Below are positions 7,763-20,618 of a stretch of 64,000 nucleotides of DNA, piece after piece. How positions within the stretch are numbered: the first letter of the stretch is position 1; each line of letters starts with the position of its first letter. The notes beneath the pieces are model-generated. The model saw only the letters and a program-made list of their open reading frames with translations, ran no database searches and was not told the DNA's origin. The translations under genes were made by a program, and so were the position numbers. The stretch comes from Candidatus Scatocola faecipullorum (lineage in GTDB: Bacteria; Pseudomonadota; Alphaproteobacteria; RF32; CAG-239). Location: contig DVNC01000021.1 of NCBI GenBank assembly GCA_018714685.1, positions 12,693-76,692 of the forward strand, written 5' to 3'.

Positions 7763-8761
7763 TCACAGCCCTAAAAAGTTTTCACGGCGTTTTTTGGGTT
7801 TGATTACCTTAATTTTCGGTTTTTGAGCCTGCAATGCCCGCCAATCCCAAGGTTTATAGAATTTTCCCTGCCAAAGGCCGTTGCCGTTCAGCTGCGCCTG
7901 TTGCTCATAAGGAACATAGATATCGGTATATTTTGTGTATGCTACAGCCCAACCGGCGTTAACCAATGCGGCACCGAGGTCATATTCGCCAAGTGCGCAG
8001 GTACCGACCATATTGCCTTTTTTATCCTGCTGCATAATCCGACAGTCAAGCGGATTATCGCCTATCCAGCCTTTAAGCCAGAGCGCAGCCTGGCGGCCGC
8101 AGTTGTAAGAACGTCCGGTTTTGTCGGCACAAGTCTGATTGGCTTCCGGCGCGTCAATTCCGTAAAGCTTAAAATAACGTCCCTGAATTTGCAGCGTATC
8201 GCCGTTTATAACCCGGGCAGGGCTGGTGAAAGACGGCAAAGCCTGAGGATTGAATCCCTGATCATTCCGGGCTTGCCCCGCACCGCCGAGAGAACTCATA
8301 AACTGCTGGAAAGCGTTTCCCTGTGCCGGCTGAGAAGGCTGCTGCCGCTGATAAGCATTTTCTCCGATGCCGGTATCAAAATTTTCATCAAGCGCCGGAG
8401 CATACTCGCCGTCATCAAGCATCGGCTGACCGCCGTTTTGCTGCTGAGCCGACATCATTGCCTGCTGCTGGCGGCCGAGAAAAGTCTGCAAACTTTGGCC
8501 AACGCCGCCAATGCCGTTGTTAAAAGCGCCAATGGCATATAAAATGAAGACGATAATTCCGATGACTACCAAAAATGAAGGCAGGCAGCCCATGGCACGC
8601 CATGCCATTTTGGTAAAAATGTAGAGTGCGACCAAACCGATAATCAGTCCGACAAAACCGCCACCCTGCAGAATTAAGTTGCTGCTTTGGGTGCCGCTGC
8701 CGCCGACAAGAATTAAAACCAAAGCGCCAAGACCCAGTAAAAATTTTTTAAGAAAGAGCAT
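7763..8761 (-). CDS. Membrane-anchored, Gln-rich protein with C-terminal staphylococcal-nuclease-like (thermonuclease) domain
   Basis: Two N-terminal TM helices, a Q/G-rich low-complexity linker, then a C-terminal SNase-like block (INGDTLQIQGRYFKLYGIDAPE...GWAVAY). Confidence 0.6.
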   Translation of the reverse strand: MLFLKKFLLGLGALVLILVGGSGTQSSNLILQGGGFVGLIIGLVALYIFTKMAWRAMGCLPSFLVVIGIIVFILYAIGAFNNGIGGVGQSLQTFLGRQQQAMMSAQQQNGGQPMLDDGEYAPALDENFDTGIGENAYQRQQPSQPAQGNAFQQFMSSLGGAGQARNDQGFNPQALPSFTSPARVINGDTLQIQGRYFKLYGIDAPEANQTCADKTGRSYNCGRQAALWLKGWIGDNPLDCRIMQQDKKGNMVGTCALGEYDLGAALVNAGWAVAYTKYTDIYVPYEQQAQLNGNGLWQGKFYKPWDWRALQAQKPKIKVIKPKKRRENFLGL

Positions 8762-9024
8762 CTCTACATTTCCTCTGGTTAAACCTGATGTTTATTAGAA
8801 CACATCTTCTGCAAAAAATCCATTTAATTTTTTATAACGTTTTTTGGTAAAGATATAGTTACCCGTTAAAAAAATTTACCGGCAAACCTGCTTTTTATCC
8901 TTCGTTGATTTTAAGGCCTGTTTTTTGACTCTGAAGCGTCTTTTGCCTCTGTGACGGATGTTTTATCAAAAAAAATGAAATCAGTATCTGTACGGGCAAA
9001 TTTTGAACAGTGTTTTTTTGTCTT

Positions 9025-9088: not shown

Positions 9089-10120
9089 TCAATCAATTAC
9101 TTTAATCGTAAATTTTCCCCCGGAAGTCGCGGATGAATCCTCCGATACCGGCATCTGATTGGTGCCGAGGTTAGGTTTTTCACCCTGACGTTTCTGCTCG
9201 AGGATATCAATAATCATATCCAGCTCGGCAGGAGAGGCGTATTGCAAAACAACTTTTCCGCCGCCTTGTTTGCTGGGAGAGATTTTGATGCGCAGTCCGA
9301 GATTCTTATTCAGGTCTTTTTCAATATCGGCCAAATCAGAATCTTTTTCTTTTTTCGGCGCTGCTTCTTTGGGGCCGCTTTTTTGTTTGGCGACCAATTC
9401 TTCAACTTGCCGCACGCTCAGGTCTTTGGCAACAATTTGCTGTGCCAAAGTTTCGGCATTTTCCAAGCCGACCAAAGCCCGGGCATGCCCTGCACTCAAT
9501 TTGCCTTCTTTTACCAGTTGCTGAACGCTTTCCGGAAGATTAAGCAAACGCAGGGTATTTGCAATATGGCTGCGCGATTTGCCGATGATCTGCGACAAAG
9601 CTTCCTGTGTGTGGGAAAATTCGTCAATCAGACGCTGCAAACCTTCAGCCTCTTCAATGGCCGAGAGATTTTCTCTCAATAAGTTTTCCACCAAGGCCAC
9701 TTCAAGGACTTCCTTATCGGAAAGATCCTTTTCAATGACGGGAACTTTATCAAGCCCGGCCAGTTTGGATGCCCGCCAACGGCGTTCACCCGCAATAATT
9801 TCAAAACCTATTCCGTCTCGGCGAACCAACAGCGGCTGCAATACACCTTTTTCTTTGATTGATTCAGCCAGAGACTGCAAAGCTTCCTGATCAAATTCCG
9901 TCCGGGGCTGAAATTTGCCCGGTTTAATCAAATCAATATCAACCAAATTGGCGGTTGCCGGAGCAGGGGCGAGGGAACTTAAATCTTCAACATTGTCCAA
10001 ATCCAAATCATCTTCCCCGAGAAGAGCGCCCAATCCGCGACCGAGACTTTTGCGTTTGTGATTGTGGCTGTCGGCGGAATCGCTGTTATTCAACATTTTA
10101 TCGATTTCATTTTCTAACAT
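9089..10120 (-). CDS. parB: Chromosome partitioning protein ParB
   Basis: ParB/Spo0J motif GERRWRA, HTH region, and synteny directly after parA. Confidence 0.9.
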   Translation of the reverse strand: MLENEIDKMLNNSDSADSHNHKRKSLGRGLGALLGEDDLDLDNVEDLSSLAPAPATANLVDIDLIKPGKFQPRTEFDQEALQSLAESIKEKGVLQPLLVRRDGIGFEIIAGERRWRASKLAGLDKVPVIEKDLSDKEVLEVALVENLLRENLSAIEEAEGLQRLIDEFSHTQEALSQIIGKSRSHIANTLRLLNLPESVQQLVKEGKLSAGHARALVGLENAETLAQQIVAKDLSVRQVEELVAKQKSGPKEAAPKKEKDSDLADIEKDLNKNLGLRIKISPSKQGGGKVVLQYASPAELDMIIDILEQKRQGEKPNLGTNQMPVSEDSSATSGGKFTIKVID

Positions 10121-10893
10121 GCCAACAATTCCTTCTCTCTTTTCAGAACTTCACCGGTCAGGCTGATATAGGCCTGAGAGCCCGGACATTTAAAATCATA
10201 AATCAAAACAGGCTTGCCGTGCGACGGCGCTTCGGAAATGCGGACATTCCGCGGAATGACGGTTTGATATACCTTTTTGCCGAAAAAGTTGCGCACGTCA
10301 TCTTCAACCATCTGGGTCAGATTGTTACGTTTGTCATACATTGTGAGGACAACACCCTGCAATTCAAGCTTCGGATTAAATTTCTTTTTAATCTGGTTGA
10401 TGTTGCGAATTAAATCGGTGATACCTTCAAGCGCCAGAAATTCACATTGCAGCGGAACGATTACGGCGTCGGCAGCAACTAACGCATTGATTGTTACCAG
10501 GCTCAAAGAAGGCGGACAGTCAATCAAAATATAATCGTAATTGACGGCATCTTTAAATAAAGCTTTTTTCAATGCAAATTCACGGTTTTCAATTTCAACC
10601 AGCTCAACTTCGGCTCCGGCCAAATCAGGTGACGACGGAACCAGAGAAAAATTCGGAATCTCCGTCCAGACAACGGCTTCAGAGATTCTTTTTTCTCCGA
10701 GCAGCACTTCATAGGAAGAGGCCATTCTTCCGCTTTTATTAATACCCATGGAAGTTGTCGCATTTCCCTGCGGATCCAGGTCAACGACCAGAACTTTCTT
10801 TCCGGCAGCAGCCATGGCTGTTGCAACATTGACCGTTGTTGTCGTTTTTCCAACACCGCCTTTGCGGTTGGCAATGGCAATAATTCTTGGCAT
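10114..10893 (-). CDS. parA: Chromosome partitioning ATPase ParA
   Basis: Deviant Walker A KGGVGKTTT. Sits in the soj/parA position next to rsmG. Confidence 0.95.
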   Translation of the reverse strand: MPRIIAIANRKGGVGKTTTTVNVATAMAAAGKKVLVVDLDPQGNATTSMGINKSGRMASSYEVLLGEKRISEAVVWTEIPNFSLVPSSPDLAGAEVELVEIENREFALKKALFKDAVNYDYILIDCPPSLSLVTINALVAADAVIVPLQCEFLALEGITDLIRNINQIKKKFNPKLELQGVVLTMYDKRNNLTQMVEDDVRNFFGKKVYQTVIPRNVRISEAPSHGKPVLIYDFKCPGSQAYISLTGEVLKREKELLAC

Positions 10894-11519
10894 TATTTAA
10901 CTCCCTTGCGTTTATTTAAATGTGTAATGATTAAGATGACGCCTTCGTCGCTTTGGCTGCTGGGAATAATCCGGCAGTCAAAATCCCAGTGTTTTTTTGC
11001 TTCAGCGATTTCTTCGGCATGTTTTTTTCCTTTGGGAAAAATACATACTGTATGAGACCCGCAAAAACGACTGGCATAATTTAACAGATTATCAAGAGCC
11101 GTCAGGGCGCGTGATGTAATAACATCAACTTTTTCGGCCGGCAGTTCTTCGATTCTCTTATTATAAATATTAACCTTGGTTCCGGTTAACTCAGCCACGT
11201 GCTTTAAATACAGTGTCTTTTTTCCAATGCTTTCTATCAGACTAACTTTTAAATACGGTGTTTTTTCCATCGCCATTATAGCCAGAACCATTCCGGGAAA
11301 TCCGGCTCCAGAGCCCAGATCGTATAAGGTTCTCGCATTAGAGGGAATGTACTGAAAAAGCTGCACTGAATCGAGAAAATGACGATTCCAGCCGTCGGCT
11401 AAAGATGATGAACTGACCAAATTAAACTTATTCTGCCATTCATTTAAAGAGGCTTCATAAGTTTTTAATTTGTCAATTGTTTCACGTGAAACATCATATG
11501 TGGTCGTATTTTTTTCCAT
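10893..11519 (-). CDS. rsmG: 16S rRNA m7G527 methyltransferase RsmG (GidB)
   Basis: SAM-binding DLGSGAGFPG motif, 208 aa, in the gidA-gidB-parA-parB neighbourhood. Carries a parS site near its 5' end. Confidence 0.9.
   Translation of the reverse strand: MEKNTTTYDVSRETIDKLKTYEASLNEWQNKFNLVSSSSLADGWNRHFLDSVQLFQYIPSNARTLYDLGSGAGFPGMVLAIMAMEKTPYLKVSLIESIGKKTLYLKHVAELTGTKVNIYNKRIEELPAEKVDVITSRALTALDNLLNYASRFCGSHTVCIFPKGKKHAEEIAEAKKHWDFDCRIIPSSQSDEGVILIITHLNKRKGVK
11478..11493. promoter_or_regulatory. parS: parS centromere site (perfect TGTTTCACGTGAAACA)
   Basis: Exact 16-bp palindrome matching the canonical parS consensus, inside the 5' end of rsmG. Confidence 0.8.
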
Positions 11520-11757
11520 AAGAAATTTATATAATTTTTACAAAAAATTTAAAACAATAAAAAGGCAGTTATAAACACCTTATTTAAATATTTTAAAATA
11601 TATTTTAAATTCAACAAATTAGAACGACAGCCTGACTCAATATATCAAGATTTTTATTTCTTTTAAATACACTGTTTGGTTATAAAAAAAACAAAAAGGC
11701 TGATAAATCTATCTGCCTGAGGAGCGGAATATTATTAAAACAGATTAAACGACAATG

Positions 11758-12384
11758 TTATTCATTTCTGATGTTCAGAAGTTGATAAATATCACAGTCA
11801 CATTTGACCTCAAAATAAAGGCGCAGATTTTCAGCACAGCTAAAATGGGTTGTTAAAAATTCTTCCTGTACCGGATACCTTTCGGCCAAAGATCGGCAAC
11901 GATACTGTAAAGAACAGTTTTTACCCCGATCATTCATCATATCTGCCAATTGCAGAAGTTTATCGTAATCATCATATTCAATGTCTGAAATATAATTTTT
12001 GCAATGTAAGATATCCTGTCGTGCCTGAGGATATAACTCAGGATTAAAATCTTTATTCAGAAAACAATGTGTAACCGAGATGCGGCCGATTTCGTCCCAA
12101 CCTTGCTTTTTCATTAACTGATAGCCGGTCCAGCCATGAAAAACATTTTCACTTTTTTCATCTTTAATGTGACCGCAATCGTGCAGCAATCCTGACAGAT
12201 AAGCCCTTTCCGAGTTTAAATACGGTGTTTGAGAAGCTATTTTAGCCGCAATGTCGGCTACTGAAAAACAATGAGCCCGAAACTCTTTTTCCCATTCCGG
12301 ACGAAAAGGGAAGGGACTGCGGTTGCGTTCGGCAATTACATATTCAAAGAAGGCTAAGGCTTCTTGTTTTGACGGCAAAGACAT
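11758..12384 (-). CDS. HDIG-domain metal-dependent phosphohydrolase (paralog 1)
   Basis: HD-superfamily motifs H...GLLHDCGHIKDE...H...D. About 208 aa. Paralogous to 12387-13010 and 46733-47470. Confidence 0.6.
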   Translation of the reverse strand: MSLPSKQEALAFFEYVIAERNRSPFPFRPEWEKEFRAHCFSVADIAAKIASQTPYLNSERAYLSGLLHDCGHIKDEKSENVFHGWTGYQLMKKQGWDEIGRISVTHCFLNKDFNPELYPQARQDILHCKNYISDIEYDDYDKLLQLADMMNDRGKNCSLQYRCRSLAERYPVQEEFLTTHFSCAENLRLYFEVKCDCDIYQLLNIRNE

Positions 12385-12386
12385 GC

Positions 12387-13010
12387 TTAATCCACTCCCA
12401 AAAGCTTATAAATATCGCAGCAGCATCTTTTATCAAAGTACTTTTTTAGTTTTAATGCTTCGCGATATTTCTTTTTTACCAGCAAAGGAGGAATTTTGTA
12501 ATTGTTGCGGATGTTAAAAATTCTTTGCTTAATATTCAGCGTTACGCCGACGGATAAACGGTCACATAATTGTATCAAACGGTCATAATCATCAAAAGGA
12601 ACTTCCTGCAACAGTTTTTTACATTTGCGCATTTCAGACGGATTATAGCCGGCATATTCCTTTAAGTTAAGTTCCTGTTCATAAAAAGTGTGGGTCAGGG
12701 ATATTCTGGCCAATTCATCATATCCCAGTTTGCGTAAATATTTATACCCCTCCAGTCCATGGAATTTATCGGACATTTCATCGTTATAAACCAGTTTGCC
12801 GAAATCATGAAATAACCCCATAATATAGGCTTTTTCACCGTCTATCTCAGGCAATCGGGAAGCAATCATCTGAGCGGCTACCGCGACCATGGCGGCGTGA
12901 ATGCGTTCTCCTTTAGAACGTCCCAGTTCGAAACGCGATGATTCCGCACAGCGTTTACGCATGGTTTCTTCATAAAGTTTTAAAGCTTGCTGCATGGTCG
13001 GCATCGTCAT
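12387..13010 (-). CDS. HDIG-domain metal-dependent phosphohydrolase (paralog 2)
   Basis: GLFHDFGKLV HD motif. Architecture and length match the adjacent paralog. Confidence 0.6.
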   Translation of the reverse strand: MTMPTMQQALKLYEETMRKRCAESSRFELGRSKGERIHAAMVAVAAQMIASRLPEIDGEKAYIMGLFHDFGKLVYNDEMSDKFHGLEGYKYLRKLGYDELARISLTHTFYEQELNLKEYAGYNPSEMRKCKKLLQEVPFDDYDRLIQLCDRLSVGVTLNIKQRIFNIRNNYKIPPLLVKKKYREALKLKKYFDKRCCCDIYKLLGVD

Positions 13011-13015
13011 GGGTT

Positions 13016-14869
13016 TTACCTTTTTACATAACTGAGCACGGCGGTAACGGCGGCAGGCGTCACTCCGGGTATTCGTGATGCTTCTCCGATTGTCGCCGGG
13101 CGGACTTTAGACAGCTTTTGTACCATCTCCCGCGATAAACCGCCGATGAGAGCATAATCAATGTCTTCTTTGATTTTAAGTTTTTCGTCTTTTTGAAATA
13201 CATCAATATCTGCCTGTTGGCGTTTCAGATAACCGGCATATTTGGCTTCAATTTCGATTGCTTCGTAAACGTCATCGGGCATTGTCTGCAATTCCGGCCA
13301 TATTTGCGTTATTGTTTCACGTGAAACACCGTCATAAGACATGACGTTAAAAGCGCTTCTTTTCGTTCCGTCACGTTTCGTCTTTACGCCGAATTTATCC
13401 AACTCGTTCGGGTTGACAATCAATTTTTCACAAAGCTGACGATAATGATTTATCTGCTCATATTTGGCTTTAAATACAGTGTATCTATTTTTCCCGACGC
13501 AACCGATTTGATAGCCCAGTTCAGTTAAACGCGCATCGGCATTATCCGCACGCAACAACAGGCGATATTCGGAGCGGGAAGTAAACATACGATAAGGTTC
13601 GTCAACGCCCTTGGTAATCAAATCGTCAATCATTACGCCGATATAGGCCTGACTGCGATCAATCACAAATTCACGCCCTTTTCCTTCGGCATACAGCGCT
13701 GCATTAACACCGGCCAACAGTCCTTGCGCGGCAGCTTCTTCATAACCGGTCGTTCCGTTTATCTGTCCTGCCAGGTAAAGACCGGGAATCTTTTTAACCG
13801 CAAGTGTTCGGTTGAGTTCCTGCGGATCAACAAAGTCATATTCAATTGCATAAGCGTAACGGAGAATTTCAACATCTTCCAGCCCTTCAATCGTATGAAT
13901 AAACTGTTCTTGAACATCTGCGGGAAGAGACGTTGAAATGCCGTTCGGATAAACAACATCAGTATTCAGACCTTCGGGTTCCAAAAAAATCTGATGACTG
14001 GTGCGGTCGGCAAATTTTACCAGTTTGTCTTCAATACTGGGACAATAGCGCGGGCCGATGCCGGTAATTAAACCGGAAAACAAAGCACATTTGGAAAAAT
14101 TATCGCGAATAATCCGATGCGTGTTTTCATTGGTATGAGTAATAAAACACTGTATCTGCGGATTGGTAATTTTTTCCGTCAGATAAGAAAAAGGCTGCGG
14201 CGGGTTATCACCGTCTTGAGAAGACAATTTTTCCCAATGAATTGTTTTGCCGTTCAGACGGGCAGGGGTACCGGTTTTTAAACGCCCGACATTCAGCCCT
14301 TTCTGTTTTAAATACGGCGTTATACCCGTACAAGTGACATCACCGATACGTCCGCCGACGGAAGTTTCATGACCGACAAACATCACGCCGTTCAAAAAAG
14401 TTCCGGAAGTAAGAACAACCGCTTTTGCGGTTATTTGTGTTCCGTCGGCCAAAATAACACCGGATATTTTTACATCATCAAAAAGCAAGCCTTCGACCGG
14501 AGCTTCTATCAGCGTCAGGCCGGATTGTTCCCGCAGCGCGGCAAGCATATATTTTTTATAAAGTTCGCGGTCAGCCTGAGCACGCGGGCCGCGGACAGCC
14601 GGACCTTTAGACTGGTTTAACATACGAAACTGTATGCCTGCCTTATCAATAACCCGTCCCATCAAACCGTCCAGCGCATCAATTTCACGTACAAGATGCC
14701 CTTTACCCAGACCGCCGATGGCCGGATTACATGACATTTCGCCTATTGTGGCAATTTTATGGGTGATCAAAGCCGTTTTGGCTCCGATACGGGCTGCTGC
14801 GGCACAAGCTTCACAACCGGCATGGCCGCCGCCGACAACAATTACATCAAACTCCTGATCCGTTTTCAT
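13016..14869 (-). CDS. mnmG: tRNA uridine-5-carboxymethylaminomethyl modification enzyme MnmG (GidA)
   Basis: FAD-binding [14 protein letters not shown], conserved GRLKTGTP and [10 protein letters not shown] blocks, 617 aa. Confidence 0.97.
13313..13328. promoter_or_regulatory. parS: parS centromere site (perfect TGTTTCACGTGAAACA)
   Basis: Second exact copy of the 16-bp parS palindrome, inside mnmG. Confidence 0.8.
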
Positions 14870-14972
14870 TTATTCAGCCTTAACATTATTTGTTCCGAAG
14901 ACGGGACAAACTTCTACTTATCGGATACTAGCATAAAAAACGTTAGCAAGCCGTTAATAGCTTCTCCCATTT

Positions 14973-14998
14973 AAAAGCGTAAAACCTGCCGCTGAAGG
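14973..14998. terminator. Putative hairpin terminator between mnmG upstream region and the hypothetical gene
   Basis: aaaacctgcc gctgaa gggcaggtttt stem-loop flanked by A/T runs. Confidence 0.35.
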
Positions 14999-15024
14999 GC
15001 AGGTTTTATAAAACGGAAGAAACT

Positions 15025-15408
15025 TCAGATTACATTGTTTCTGATGCAGAACTGCCAGAAAGTATAAATTTCACTTCGTTCTATAATATAAGGGCAGTAA
15101 ACACAGGCAGAAAAAATATCCAGGCTCCAAAGATAATTTTTATAGGGTTTCTGTTCGCCGGCATGCTGACGAAGGTAAGAAATCAGACCACTAACGGCGT
15201 GGCCCAACGCTTCCTGCTCACTGCGAAGCTTTTCATCTTCGTAGTAATAAGAGATTCCCAATTCCTCCGATTTTCTTACTAACTTGGCAAATTTTTCGTG
15301 GATTGCCTGATAATGCCCTTCCATCGGCTGTTGAAGGGCCATCTCGGTTAAAACACAGACATGCTTCTTAATCAAAAATTCAAGTCCGTCAGAATAATTT
15401 TTTTTCAT
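15025..15408 (-). CDS. Hypothetical protein (127 aa)
   Basis: ORF between mnmG and mnmE with no motif I recognise. Confidence 0.35.
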   Translation of the reverse strand: MKKNYSDGLEFLIKKHVCVLTEMALQQPMEGHYQAIHEKFAKLVRKSEELGISYYYEDEKLRSEQEALGHAVSGLISYLRQHAGEQKPYKNYLWSLDIFSACVYCPYIIERSEIYTFWQFCIRNNVI

Positions 15409-15504
15409 AATGACAAGTTTTTAGCGTTAATAATAAATGATTAAGCCGATATTACTCAATCGGGCTTTAGAAAGCAAGCATAATTTGTCAAAAAATCCGG
15501 CTAA

Positions 15505-16848
15505 TTATTTACCGATACAAAATGACCCGAAAATTTTATCGAGAATGTCATCTACCTCAATCCGTCCGGTGATTTTCCCCAAAGCGCGGGCCGCCAGGCG
15601 AACATCTTCGGCAGCCAATTCAATTTCTTTTCGCAGTGTAAAAGTTTCCAACGCTTCTACAGTTTCTTTCAAAGCTTCACGGTAACGGGCACGGGTTATC
15701 AGCAAATTTGAATTAGAGGTAAAGCGGTTTTCAATCCGTTCGGTAATGGCCTGAAGCAGCTGCTCCAATCCCTGACGAGGTTTAGCGGCTATGGTCAGAC
15801 AGCCTTCCTGTCGCAGCGAAGAAATCCTTTCTGCCGACAAGCGGTCGGTTTTATTGGCAACCAAAAGCATTTTACCGGAAATTGTTTTTTTCAGATTATC
15901 AAAGATATGAACAGTGTCTTGTGATGCATCGAACAAACATATCACAAGGTCGGCTTCGTTAATTTTATGGTAAGCAATTTCTATGCCTTTCTTTTCAATG
16001 GCATCTTCTACTTCACGCAGACCGGCAGTGTCGGTAAACATAACCGGATAACCTTTCAAATCCAGGTGAACATCAACCGCATCGCGGGTGGTTCCGGCAA
16101 TATCGGAAACGATGGCCGCTTCACGATTAACAACAGCATTCAGCAAACTTGATTTACCGGCATTCGGCGGGCCGACAATAACAACGCGAAAACCTTCGCG
16201 CAGCCTTTCGCCGATAGTGTCGCCGGACAGATGTGCTTTAATTGCTTCCTTGAGTTTAAATACAGTGTCTTCAAGTTTAAATACGGTGTCTTCCGGAATT
16301 TCTTCGTCAGGAAAATCAATATAAGCTTCCAGATGAGCCATCACGGTTAAAAGTTCTTCCCGCCAGCTTTCATAAAGGTTTTTTAAGCCGCCTTCCATCT
16401 GCCGCATGGCATATTTCTGCTGTTCAGCGGTTTCGGCATCTATCAGATCGGCTAATCCCTCGGCCTGAGTCAAATCCATTTTGCCGTTGTAAAAAGCCCG
16501 TTTGGAATATTCTCCGGGTTCAGCCATGCGGAAACCTTCCAACCGTGACAATGATGAAAGGACTCCGGAAATTACGGCTTTGGAGCCGTGAATCTGCAAT
16601 TCAACGATATCTTCCCCGGTGAACGAATGAGGCGCCTTAAAATACAGCAAAAGACACTTATCCAGTACCTGTTTCTCGGGAACAGACAACAAATCGGTAA
16701 AATAGGCATAACGGGGTTTGATGCCCGAAGGCGAAAGGCGGGTCATTTGCCCAATAATCTGAAAAGCCCGATCGCCTGATATGCGGATGACGGCGACGCC
16801 CGATTTGCCGAAAACGGTTGAGAGTGCATAAATGGTCTGATTATCCAT
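15505..16848 (-). CDS. mnmE: tRNA modification GTPase MnmE (TrmE)
   Basis: G-domain motifs GPPNAGKSSLLN, DTAGLR, NKTD, and the C-terminal ...CIGK. Contains an in-frame EDTVFKL-EDTVFKL duplication. Confidence 0.95.
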   Translation of the reverse strand: MDNQTIYALSTVFGKSGVAVIRISGDRAFQIIGQMTRLSPSGIKPRYAYFTDLLSVPEKQVLDKCLLLYFKAPHSFTGEDIVELQIHGSKAVISGVLSSLSRLEGFRMAEPGEYSKRAFYNGKMDLTQAEGLADLIDAETAEQQKYAMRQMEGGLKNLYESWREELLTVMAHLEAYIDFPDEEIPEDTVFKLEDTVFKLKEAIKAHLSGDTIGERLREGFRVVIVGPPNAGKSSLLNAVVNREAAIVSDIAGTTRDAVDVHLDLKGYPVMFTDTAGLREVEDAIEKKGIEIAYHKINEADLVICLFDASQDTVHIFDNLKKTISGKMLLVANKTDRLSAERISSLRQEGCLTIAAKPRQGLEQLLQAITERIENRFTSNSNLLITRARYREALKETVEALETFTLRKEIELAAEDVRLAARALGKITGRIEVDDILDKIFGSFCIGK

Positions 16849-18269: not shown

Positions 18270-19553
18270 TTAGCTGTTCATGGTATTGAAGAAATCCTGA
18301 TTGTCTTTGCTTTGTTTGAGCTTTTCAAGCAAAAACTCCATACCGTCCGTCATTCCCATCTGCATCAGCACACGGCGCAGAACCCACATTTTGGACAAGG
18401 TGGCCTTGTCAACCAGCAGTTCTTCCTTACGGGTGCCGGAGCGGGTAATATCAATCGTCGGGAAGAGGCGTTTATCGGTCAGTTTTCGATCAAGAATGAT
18501 TTCTGAGTTGCCGGTTCCTTTGAATTCTTCAAAGATAACTTCGTCCATGCGGGAACCGGTATCAATCAGAGCCGTGGCGATAATGGTCAGCGATCCGCCT
18601 TCTTCAACATTGCGGGCTGCACCGAGAATGCGTTTCGGCCGCTGGAGAGCATTTGCATCGACACCGCCGGTCAAAACCTTGCCGGAAGAAGGGATTACCG
18701 TATTGTAAGCGCGACCCAAACGGGTAATCGAATCGAGCAGAATGACAACGTCTTTTTTATTTTCAACCAGGCGTTTGGCTTTTTCAATCACCATTTCAGC
18801 TACCTGAACATGGCGCGAAGCCGGTTCATCAAAGGTAGAAGAAATTACTTCACCTTTCACCGAACGAGTCATATCGGTTACTTCCTCGGGACGTTCGTCA
18901 ATCAAAAGCACCATCAGATAGGCTTCAGGATGATTGGCGGCAATCGCATGGGCAATATTCTGCAGCATTACGGTTTTACCTGTGCGCGGCGGGGCAACAA
19001 TCAGCCCGCGCTGGCCTTTGCCCTGCGGTGAAATCAAATCAATCACGCGGCAGGTATAGTCTTTGTCGCCGCAGATAATATCAAAATTAAGCTTTTCCGT
19101 CGGGTAAAGCGGCGTCAGATTGTCAAAATTAACCCTAAGTTTTGATTTTTCGGGATCGTCAAAATTAATGGCGTTAATCTTGGTTAAGGCAAAATAACGT
19201 TCATTGTCTTTCGGACCGCGAATTTCGCCTTCAACAGTATCGCCGGTGCGCAGGCCAAATTTTTTAACCTGGGAAGGCGAAACATATATGTCATCAGGGC
19301 CGGCAAGATAGTTTGATTCGGCGGAACGGAGAAAACCGAAACCGTCCGGCATGACTTCAATTGTGCCTTCGCCGTAGATAATTTTATCGTCATCGGCGAG
19401 TTTTTTTAGAATAGCAAACATCAAATCCTGTTTGCGCATGGATGAAGCATCTTCAATCCCTAAATCTTCAGCCTGAGTTAACAACTCGGTAGGAGACTTT
19501 TGTTTGAGCTCTTTTAAATTCATGGGAACCTTAAATATGTAGGATATTGTCAA
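18270..19553 (-). CDS. rho: Transcription termination factor Rho
   Basis: N-terminal RNA-binding domain, Walker [13 protein letters not shown], 427 aa, very high conservation. Confidence 0.97.
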
Positions 19554-20033
19554 AACAGAAATAAGAACTATATGATATAGTATAAGTTTATATATGCTTT
19601 AAATCGAAAACTGTCAAATAAAGATTGGATATTTTTTCAGGGCAGATTTATGCACATTCCGACCTGCCAATTTAAAATTTAAAAAATTATGTAGTAGATT
19701 GTATATGCCTGTGACTCTTGTGGATAAATTTTGAGCCACAGAGTTATCCAGAAGTTAACAGTTTGTTAATAAAGCTGTTAACCGAAAATAAACAATCGTT
19801 AACGAATCGTTAAAACTTTTCCGGACTCAAAATGTAAACTGCAAAATTAAGTTTTTGTTAATAACTTTTTTATCCACCGGCCGGGGATGAAAAAGCTGCT
19901 TGTGCGTAAGTCAGTATATTAGATTTTACTTTATGGTGATTACTTTGTATAAATTGGAAAAAGGGCTCAGTTATACACAGGAAAAGCCTGATTTGTTGAT
20001 AAGTGAGTCAAACCTTTGATTTGAGGATTTTTT
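19554..20033. promoter_or_regulatory. Candidate chromosomal replication origin (oriC) and rho leader region
   Basis: 480-bp AT-rich intergenic region. Perfect DnaA box at 19719-19727 (tgtggataa = TTATCCACA). One-mismatch boxes at 19744-19752 (ttatccaga) and 19870-19878 (ttatccacc). Three TTAA-N7-TTAA (CtrA-box-like) motifs at 19755-19769, 19799-19813 and 19847-19861. Flanked by rho and coaE-dnaQ, as around the alphaproteobacterial Cori. Confidence 0.55.
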
Positions 20034-20618
20034 ATGAAGCTTGCAGCCATTACCGGTTCAATCGGGTGCGGAAAAACAACCCTTTCCAAAATTGTCCGCC
20101 GTCTGGGATATGTTGTTTATGATATCGACGGTTGGGTTCGCCGTTTGTATTATCAAAAGGATTTTATCAAGGTTATTGCGGCACATTTTCCGGAAGTTAT
20201 GGAAGGGGAAAAGGTCAACAAACGGAAATTGAGAAATCTGGTTTTCGGGGATAATGCCCGGTTGAAAGTTTTGGAAAGCCTGATTCATCCTTTTTTGAAG
20301 CAGACTCTGATGAATGTCCGCCGTCGAAATGCCCGCCGGGCTGATTTGTTTTTTATGGATGTTGCCCTGTTGTTCGAAATGGGCTGGGATAAATACTGCG
20401 ATTATATCGTGGTGGCTGATGTTGATTATGAGACACAAAAAATGAGAGTTATGCGGCGGGATAACATTTCAGCAGCGGATTTTGACAAGATTAACCGGAT
20501 TCAGATGGACAATGCGGCCAAAAAAGTTTTGGCCGATGTGATTATTAATACGGATAAGCCGATTAATCTGCTGAAGGTTGAGCTGCTGGCGATGATTGAA
20601 GAAATAGAGGGATGCTGA
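20034..20618 (+). CDS. coaE: Dephospho-CoA kinase
   Basis: ITGSIGCGKTT P-loop at the N-terminus, 194 aa. Confidence 0.9.
   Translation: MKLAAITGSIGCGKTTLSKIVRRLGYVVYDIDGWVRRLYYQKDFIKVIAAHFPEVMEGEKVNKRKLRNLVFGDNARLKVLESLIHPFLKQTLMNVRRRNARRADLFFMDVALLFEMGWDKYCDYIVVADVDYETQKMRVMRRDNISAADFDKINRIQMDNAAKKVLADVIINTDKPINLLKVELLAMIEEIEGC

Follow-up and report, generated by a model that had tools for sequence, protein, structure and literature searches.

Why does the centromere region of a bacterial chromosome carry, within housekeeping genes and between its parS sites, a second short word that always lies on the same DNA strand? The question is raised by a 64,000-nucleotide stretch of the genome of Candidatus Scatocola faecipullorum (contig DVNC01000021.1, positions 12,693 to 76,692; hereafter the window), in which eight copies of a 14-mer, ACRVYGTATTTAAA, are found between positions 11203 and 16289, all on the minus strand. 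To our knowledge, parS has so far been regarded as the sole conserved cis-element of bacterial chromosomal centromeres.

A one-strand 14-mer interleaved with parS

The original prediction, made from the letters of the window, described eight 14-mers in a single orientation, located in rsmG, an HDIG gene, mnmG and mnmE, with one copy between genes. Scanning bears this out. Six exact matches to ACACYGTATTTAAA are found on the minus strand (11203, 11248, 12215, 13469, 16255 and 16276) and none in shuffled sequence; when one change is allowed, two more minus-strand copies appear, at 11662 (ACAGTG...) and 14307 (ACGCCG...), each deviating at one variable position. The copies are distributed as two in rsmG, one in an HD-domain gene, two in mnmG, two in mnmE and one intergenic. 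The invariant 9-mer core, GTATTTAAA, occurs in the 64 kb only at these eight sites, against an expected 0.96, and the assertion that the cluster is far beyond chance thus stands. The array is listed here from the end nearest the origin, together with its two parS sites and its setting.

16276..16289, minus strand: motif copy ACACCGTATTTAAA, mnmE codons 187-191, D-T-V-F-K, frame 1; first unit of a 21-bp tandem and the array end nearest the origin
16255..16268, minus strand: motif copy ACACTGTATTTAAA, mnmE codons 194-198, D-T-V-F-K, frame 1
14307..14320, minus strand: motif copy ACGCCGTATTTAAA, mnmG codons 184-188, T-P-Y-L-K, frame 0
13469..13482, minus strand: motif copy ACACTGTATTTAAA, mnmG codons 463-467, Y-T-V-F-K, frame 1; 141 bp from parS
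13313..13328: parS, perfect, inside mnmG, encoding V-S-R-E-T
12215..12228, minus strand: motif copy ACACCGTATTTAAA, HD/HDOD-domain gene codons 53-57, T-P-Y-L-N, frame 0
11662..11675, minus strand: motif copy ACAGTGTATTTAAA, intergenic, 143 bp upstream of the rsmG ATG
11575..11588, plus strand: inverted near-copy ACACCTTATTTAAA, the invariant G changed to T
11478..11493: parS, perfect, TGTTTCACGTGAAACA, inside rsmG, encoding V-S-R-E-T
11248..11261, minus strand: motif copy ACACCGTATTTAAA, rsmG codons 87-91, T-P-Y-L-K, frame 0
11203..11216, minus strand: motif copy ACACTGTATTTAAA, rsmG codons 102-106, T-L-Y-L-K, frame 0; 45 bp from the copy at 11248
9089..16848, minus strand: co-directional gene cluster holding the array (mnmE, orf127, mnmG, two HD genes, rsmG, parA, parB)
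19648..20002: DnaA-box cluster in the rho/coaE intergenic region, with 6 of the window's 16 DnaA-box matches; the GC skew switches here

Within genes the motif is read in two frames, as had been claimed. Frame 0 gives T-P/L-Y-L-K/N, at amino acids (aa) 87 and 102 of rsmG, aa53 of the HD gene and aa184 of mnmG, and frame 1 gives x-T-V-F-K, at aa463 of mnmG and aa187 and aa194 of mnmE. The third frame would hold a TAA stop, which explains why only two are seen.

The cluster had also been placed around two parS sites near the origin, and this is where it lies, with parS at 11478 and 13313 and the motif copies 3.5-8.6 kb from the likely oriC. The latter is the rho/coaE spacer (19553-20034), which would be the context of the array and not part of it. 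In 63 relatives DnaA boxes number 9/kb in this spacer compared with 0.33/kb elsewhere, and the GC-skew sign flips there too; gene order and oriC are conserved.

Two of the earlier claims hold in part. All eight copies do share one orientation, but the plus-strand near-copy at 11575-11588 had been overlooked. It is probably noise, neither functional nor a member of the family, since its invariant G is broken and it has no counterpart in 80 relatives, none of which has a complete opposite-strand copy. With the intergenic copy, 73 nt away, it makes up an imperfect inverted pair in the rsmG leader (11575-11675), seen in this genome only among 81 loci. The second claim, that there are no copies elsewhere, is true of the 64-kb window but not of the clade, where copies occur across oriC and in a second block of genes. 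Just past the parB terminator the window also has AAACACTGTTCAAAAT (8995-9010, minus strand), with the ACACTGT half and without the GTATTTAAA core; it may be a decayed copy, at a point where many relatives carry one in the C-terminal part of parB.

Conservation, constraint and distribution

How far does this arrangement extend beyond one genome? A MnmE-based scan, keeping one genome per species, gave 80 loci whose MnmE is 60-83% identical to that of the window. Their sources are uncultured Alphaproteobacteria of gut, rumen and faeces, under the labels 'Azospirillum sp.', CAG:495 or Ca. Scatocola. All are metagenome-assembled genomes (MAGs) that share ancestry, and their counts are not independent events. 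In an RsmG protein search aimed at outgroups, the matches listed were taken up by the clade itself, at 63-99% identity. Two contigs with an alphaproteobacterial mnmE and the motif (L013 and L053) are filed in MAGs named 'Gastranaerophilales' and 'Lactobacillus sp.', labels that probably reflect binning contamination.

With each locus turned so that mnmE lies on the plus strand, the 80 relatives contain 299 exact copies on the mnmE-sense strand and 0 on the other, and a further 129 against 0 with one mismatch, making 428 against 0. The 9-mer core is found 487 times on that strand and 11 times on the opposite one, the latter being the chance level. These 487 instances refine the consensus to (A-rich)-A-C-R-V-Y-G-T-A-T-T-T-A-A-A, which is non-palindromic. 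No locus of the 81 is without a copy, and 75 carry at least three. Particular sites are retained as follows.

mnmE, about aa194: 72 loci in the positional count; intact in 80/81 in the aligned comparison
mnmE, aa187: 10 loci in the positional count; about 13 of 81 in the aligned comparison; otherwise unrelated sequence of equal length
mnmG, aa184: about 70 loci
mnmG, aa463: about 53 loci
rsmG, aa87: 62/68 aligned relatives
rsmG, aa102: 62 loci in the positional count; 63/68 relatives in the aligned comparison
parB, about aa320: 32 loci; absent from the window
HD gene (12215 in the window): a site common to 8 loci

There are 53 further copies elsewhere, many of which begin where the stop codon of mnmE or mnmG ends, on its last base, or lie just upstream of rsmG; the intergenic position upstream of rsmG is also occupied in the closest relatives (L001, L002, L003 and L055). 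Copies form head-to-tail tandems at spacings of 13, 21 and 42-45 bp, the preferred pairs being the 45-bp rsmG pair (57 loci) and the 21-bp mnmE pair (13 loci), with 13 bp also recurring. The parS sites are likewise fixed in position, at rsmG aa9 (aa9-13) in 68 loci, at about aa513 of mnmG (within aa511-517) in 74 and at mnmE aa56 in 14. In the more distant L261, with an RsmG 44% identical, parS and the motif are both kept and the motif stands at different rsmG codons, which implies that its presence is maintained under selection while its positions turn over.

Is it the peptide or the DNA that is under selection? Codon alignments of 81 mnmE, 74 mnmG and 68 rsmG genes were used to measure third-position conservation (IC3), and in all three only motif copies and parS sites stand out as the strongest peaks. 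The mnmE motif at aa194 scores 1.83, the top peak of a gene whose mean is 0.62. In mnmG parS scores 1.88 and the motifs 1.75 (aa184) and 1.49 (aa463), and in rsmG parS scores 1.98 and the motifs 1.71 (aa102) and 1.66 (aa87). The flanks vary freely, and sites that lack the motif show unrelated sequence rather than a decayed copy. Among sequences in which the peptide is compatible with the motif, 326/330 have precisely the codons of the motif, although GTA makes up only 18% of valine codons and TTA 27% of leucine codons in these genes; use of the motif codons is thus 99%, compared with about 10% expected from background usage. These results support the view that selection maintains the nucleotide sequence and not the protein, as the original prediction had proposed, and the check it had suggested, on orthologues of mnmE, mnmG and rsmG, finds the motif held at orthologous codons against synonymous drift.

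The encoded peptides point the same way. The motif had been said to overlie variable positions when compared with E. coli, and the alignments agree: TPYLK stands opposite PLSRR and YTVFK opposite WARFN in MnmG, and KTLYLK opposite RVRFLR in RsmG, the positions being judged against solved E. coli and B. subtilis structures. One claim proved mistaken. The second mnmE copy was thought to have arisen by an in-frame EDTVFKL duplication, but it is not an insertion; it replaces an unrelated heptad of equal length (SVIDNMQ or DLVDKLE in relatives), and MnmE is 447 aa long in most relatives, whether they have one copy or two, with no indel at any site. The reverse orientation of the motif would be equally encodable, so that coding does not explain the one-strand rule.

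The array is sharply bounded. Among the 67 loci that hold both mnmE and parB, copies are distributed thus.

mnmE start to parB end: 420 copies in 553 kb, 0.76/kb; mean 6.3 per genome, range 3-11
Origin side of mnmE: 11 copies in 635 kb, 0.017/kb
Beyond parB: 0 copies in 208 kb, 0/kb

The density drops 45-fold outside the mnmE-parB cluster, and the array, with the parS pair at its centre, keeps within a single co-directional gene cluster. Its tie to the parS/ParB region is borne out in 80 species. The opposite strand has zero complete copies in 1.46 Mb of centromere loci and 147 kb of a second region, in place of the equal frequency on both strands that a generic dispersed repeat would give.

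In a small number of lineages, copies also lie on the far side of oriC, in the other replichore, and keep the orientation of the array. One lies antisense inside ddl (L010) and another sense in a yhiN-like gene (L037); others stand directly after the secB stop codon, on the opposite strand, beside a terminator hairpin (L012, L014, L016, L019, L024 and L026, and as a 13-bp tandem in L042). One subclade (L012, L014, L026 and L029) also has the motif in the interval from the mnmG stop codon to an intrinsic terminator, and there the 3' untranslated regions (3'UTRs) of mnmG and secB would be complementary over 13-14 nt.

A scan of metagenomes, with at least 120 loci listed, gave about 113 listed loci that are single chance matches with random flanks, and two multi-copy contigs from outside the centromere. 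One of these, in a 'MAG Alphaproteobacteria', carries the block rpsA-adh-gmk-PALP-lptFG ... oprB-rimB-7TM-rimK-ppi. Seven loci of this second block contain 24 copies on one DNA strand and 0 on the other: two to four head-to-tail units in the oprB/rimB spacer, others in other spacers, and genic copies that are antisense within 7TM and oprB and sense within the oppositely oriented adh.

By GC skew, the second-block and across-oriC copies lie on the lagging strand and the array copies on the leading strand. Within a region, then, all copies point one way whatever the gene strand, and this direction bears no fixed relation to that of the fork. Copies across oriC meet a normal fork with the other face than do array copies, yet the GC skew is that of normal bidirectional replication. 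In L011-type genomes adh-gmk-PALP-lptFG follows dnaQ, adjoining oriC, and the 16 kb to the right of oriC there, searched from the L011 PALP gene, hold neither the rimK block nor a motif copy. Given a putative placement of the second block near oriC, drawn from shared gene order and GC skew only, all copies may share a single absolute orientation.

Candidate readings of the element

What, then, is the 14-mer? We consider that ACRVYGTATTTAAA is a cis-acting, polar element of double-stranded DNA, and most likely the binding site of a sequence-specific DNA-binding protein of this clade; we put the probability of this reading at roughly one half. It would belong to a general kind, the protein-binding site array proximal to the origin or centromere. 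From its constraint, polarity, clustering around parS and distribution we infer protein binding, a link with partition and a role as polar barrier or organiser. The tandems, spaced at 13, 21 and 42-45 bp, resemble protein sites of the iteron type and count in its favour, and the strict polarity of the 14-mer suggests asymmetric recognition. This polarity, its defining property, is not expected of an ordinary site for a centromere or nucleoid protein and points to interaction with a directional process. The prediction of a centromere- or origin-associated protein-binding array is thus sustained as regards the tie to parS and ParB, though in relatives the element is not strictly confined to the centromere and the binding would be an attribute read from its sequence.

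Under this reading the mnmE-mnmG-rsmG-parA-parB cluster, at 3-11 kb from oriC, would hold about six copies (range 3-11), in one orientation and interleaved with 2-3 parS sites. The copies would be overprinted on tolerant codons, in two stop-avoiding frames, because intergenic space is scarce. The bound protein may be part of the ParB/parS partition complex beside the origin, or a boundary to it. Since all copies are co-oriented whatever the local gene strand or replication direction, the complex would be polar, and would act together with a partner travelling along the DNA, for which RNA polymerase, the replisome, parS-loaded SMC and sliding ParB clamps are candidates. In this essential centromere operon the orientation of the copies would let co-directional transcription and the fork pass, both meeting the same face.

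The element resembles parS in being origin-proximal, in occupying the same genes (mnmE, mnmG and rsmG), in an equal hold against synonymous drift, in its few copies per chromosome and in the turnover of its positions. The differences are equally clear, in that parS is a 16-bp palindrome without orientation, whereas the motif is asymmetric and co-oriented and resembles neither parS nor half-parS. A search for the 16-bp inverted repeat like TGTTNCACGTGAAACA, with up to three mismatches, matches only the two true parS sites of the window. Canonical parS is also present, and the motif is no replacement for it. Nor is it a DnaA box (TTATCCACA, with up to one mismatch); such boxes cluster at 19648-20002 and not at motif copies, and there is no overlap of sequence. 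As for the CtrA box (TTAA-N7-TTAA), the reverse complement of the 487-instance consensus, TTAA-ATACRBY-GTTW, contains the first half-site only. All three tests came out as the original prediction had said, including the partial CtrA half-site.

Other arrays share some of its features. Those of RacA-ram, Noc-NBS, SlmA-SBS and MatP-matS, and the DnaA-box clusters including datA, likewise consist of short words in one region that recruit an organising or positioning protein, as the motif would do. However, they are mostly inverted repeats with no orientation rule, spread over hundreds of kb, whereas here there are 6-8 polar sites in 8 kb and a few nearby. Iterons and the parC direct repeats bound by ParR, omega or TubR are asymmetric head-to-tail units, comparable with the 13- and 21-bp tandems of oprB/rimB, the secB 3' end and mnmE, but they are contiguous and stand beside a rep or par gene, while the motif units are mostly 0.05-2 kb apart in unrelated genes; no rep- or parR-like gene was seen among the neighbouring genes examined.

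Several points weigh against this reading. No obvious sequence-specific DNA-binding domain, other than in ParB, is seen in the neighbouring genes, which encode enzymes, ParA and ParB and a membrane protein resembling staphylococcal nuclease (SNase-like); the HD/HDOD paralogues, a PHP-like gene, a MurA-like gene and small variable open reading frames (ORFs) have none either. Long-range co-orientation is not needed by ordinary DNA-binding proteins, and we know of no precedent for it among the sites of centromere or nucleoid proteins. The limits of the array are exactly those of the co-directional transcription cluster, from the mnmE start to the parB terminator, so that a transcription-coupled role would fit as well. 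Copies outside the centromere in relatives show that the element is not purely centromeric, the shared ancestry of the relatives limits the weight of their counts, and the genome-wide distribution is an extrapolation from 64 kb and about 1.6 Mb of loci.

Instead of being a static docking site, the element could be a strand-specific signal for a machine tracking along the DNA, an alternative we regard as unlikely. In one variant it would be a non-template-strand element that recruits an elongation or antitermination factor in the style of ops and RfaH, helping RNA polymerase to cross a ParB-coated operon; in another it would be a loading or orientation signal for a translocase. The polarity is strict (428 against 0), every copy in the array is on the coding, non-template strand, which is the leading strand, and the array begins after the mnmE start and ends at the parB terminator. 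The length of 12-14 nt and the asymmetry recall ops, and rho is next door. But elements of the ops type, which recruit NusG paralogues, occur singly or as a pair in the 5' leader of a long operon, always on the non-template strand, and not as 6-8 copies deep in coding regions; copies of the motif outside the array are mostly intergenic or antisense to local genes, the antisense ones being on the template strand. KOPS and Chi are strand-specific too, but they are 5-8-mers found genome-wide that flip at oriC; the motif, at 14 nt, is local, does not flip, falls 45-fold in density outside the cluster and has its across-oriC and second-block copies on the lagging strand, so that its orientation relative to replication differs between regions. 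It is therefore no genome-wide skewed 8-mer, and the uniform strand, regardless of gene strand or fork direction, argues for a polar DNA element rather than an mRNA signal or a word of the KOPS/Chi type.

Could the sites be oriented barriers or markers, with copies within about 25 kb on either side of oriC in one absolute orientation, like CTCF or Ter sites placed at a centromere? This analogy seems to us quite unlikely to be correct. Tus-Ter and RTP-Ter, and in concept oriented CTCF for SMC and mTERF/Reb1, do offer asymmetric sites of 14-23 bp whose orientation matters, as it may here. A barrier of the Tus-Ter type would be bound by a contrahelicase and oriented to stop opposing forks while those from oriC pass. 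The motif differs in lying at the origin and centromere instead of the terminus, its across-oriC copies face the fork the other way, and no Tus- or RTP-like protein was identified. As a barrier, the bound asymmetric protein would stop ParB clamps, SMC or head-on polymerases moving one way only; if so, oriC would be insulated from a partition complex 4-6 kb away and loading from parS would be one-sided. As a marker, the protein would remain on one of the parental strands when the DNA is replicated; the complex would then pass to a single sister centromere, and the cell could tell its two sister chromosomes apart.

An RNA-level role appears no more probable than that. Here the mRNAs of the centromere operon would carry a 14-nt target with which RNAs from the opposite strand (the secB, oprB and ppi 3'UTRs) would pair, as a regulon based on small RNAs (sRNAs) or 3'UTRs, or the motif would be read by an RNA-binding protein. 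All array copies are sense, and the complement that follows the secB stop codon and precedes the terminator hairpin, in the six single-copy loci named above and twice in tandem in L042, has the classic layout of a 3'UTR-derived sRNA. The subclade with the motif between mnmG stop and terminator is the same one, and the variable positions R and Y could be tolerated by G-U wobble. Against this, the post-secB complement is present in 7 loci and absent from 13 others that include secB, while the targets are universal, and within a genome the middle three bases of 'sRNA' and 'targets' mismatch. In the second block and beyond oriC, copies stay on one DNA strand even where the genes switch strand (sense in adh and yhiN, antisense in the rest). 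This is expected of a DNA element but a coincidence for RNA, and it makes a signal at the mRNA level unlikely; the secB 3'UTR layout leaves an antisense-RNA variant with a low probability. Targets of sRNAs are normally scattered and near start codons, not packed around parS. An Rfam search of the whole window gave no match at gathering score, and folding of the copies with their flanks gave no common structure (z-scores -1.5 to +1.4).

Still less probable is an ordinary operator, bound by a transcription factor that would have the mnmE-parB genes, the rimB-rimK operon and some further genes under joint control. A plausible -35, followed after 17 nt by an extended -10, overlaps the copy upstream of rsmG, tandem copies stand in the oprB/rimB spacer upstream of an operon, and several copies are just upstream of start codons. 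Most, however, are hundreds of bases into coding regions, far from promoters, and 6-8 co-oriented sites in one 8-kb cluster do not look like a regulon; conservation at the level of parS over such evolutionary depth would be unusual for operators. No conserved -10/-35 partner is found around the 487 instances, which also disposes of the motif as a promoter element, the rsmG-upstream copy alone overlapping a plausible promoter.

A non-functional origin, by chance, codon or peptide convergence, a small mobile repeat or MAG assembly artefact, is effectively refuted. The AT-richness of the motif and its partial fit to conserved peptides (K-x-x-F/Y-L-K in RsmG) speak for it, but shuffles expect 0, one and the same 14-mer is found in two frames and outside coding sequence, in a single orientation, the motif codons are used at 99% against about 10% expected with no indels at the sites, and it is present in 81/81 independently assembled loci.

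Some further candidates were set aside. A mobile mini-repeat (RPE, MITE or REP) is rejected by the single orientation and the lack of a length change at any site. By-eye comparison with the IHF site, marbox, matS core, KorA operator, dif, Ter and RTP sites, the H-NS site, the −1 frameshift heptamer UUUAAAC and an anticodon-loop mimic failed on spacing, frame or key positions. In L242 (2945) and L243 (2477, oriented coordinates) a 15-mer preceded by TGTG[A/G]ATAA, the reverse complement of a DnaA box, belongs to an unrelated repeat family of a different, low-GC organism from an unrelated metagenome and was judged a coincidence. A paired-motif scan of viral contigs gave 67 matches; each proved to be an unrelated AT-rich repeat or a conserved phage gene, and the full motif was not enriched. 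Literature searches on the motif with parS, on OpaA (GapR, which is not sequence-specific) and on parS/mnmG/rsmG motifs returned nothing relevant.

Neighbouring genes and the meaning of the element

On the minus strand of the window parB (9089-10120) is preceded in turn by parA, rsmG (10893-11519), mnmG (13016-14869), mnmE (15505-16848) and rho, and an intrinsic terminator right after parB closes the cluster. The order rho/coaE-dnaQ resembles the Caulobacter origin region, but without hemE, maf and aroE.

Beyond parB lies a gene for a 332-aa protein (7763-8761, minus strand) with N-terminal membrane helices, a Q-rich linker and a C-terminal staphylococcal-nuclease-like domain, in which two catalytic arginines, judged by eye, seem to be replaced by K and N. 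The gene is kept directly after parB in 62 loci, and its product could be a candidate membrane tether for DNA.

Between mnmG and rsmG the window has HD/HDOD-domain paralogues (11758-13010, minus strand), of which the clade has one to three in tandem inserted at this point (55 loci). The same interval in relatives holds a PHP-like gene of 274 aa in 59 loci, not found in the window, and a MurA-like gene in 13. A small ORF of 127 aa (15025-15408, minus strand), without a Pfam match, occupies the gap between mnmE and mnmG, where relatives have differing, barely related small ORFs of 120-160 aa; this suggests a fast-evolving gene slot.

Two promoter-like sites are seen on the minus strand. One, TTTAAA-17-TATATT with an upstream TG (11639-11667), overlaps the intergenic motif copy 5' of rsmG, and the TTTAAA of that copy (11662) could serve as its -35. 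The other, TTAACC-18-TATAAT (11160-11189), lies within rsmG, some 270 bp before parA, and is a possible internal promoter for parAB.

What does the element mean for these organisms? Throughout an order-level clade of uncultured Alphaproteobacteria from gut and rumen, parS is accompanied by a second element, interleaved with it, equally constrained and strictly polar. This second element also offers a clean case of regulatory DNA overprinted on coding sequence, the motif dictating TVFK or TPYLK in four housekeeping proteins. A second centromere element implies a protein partner at the origin and centromere, for which the motif provides a precise bait, as the 14-mer or its 13- or 21-bp tandems, together with an orientation read-out that bears on whether bacteria use oriented DNA barriers. 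The polarity offers a real chance of a mechanism undescribed in bacteria, and if the sites do act as barriers or markers, they would represent a kind of chromosome-organising element that has not been described in bacteria.

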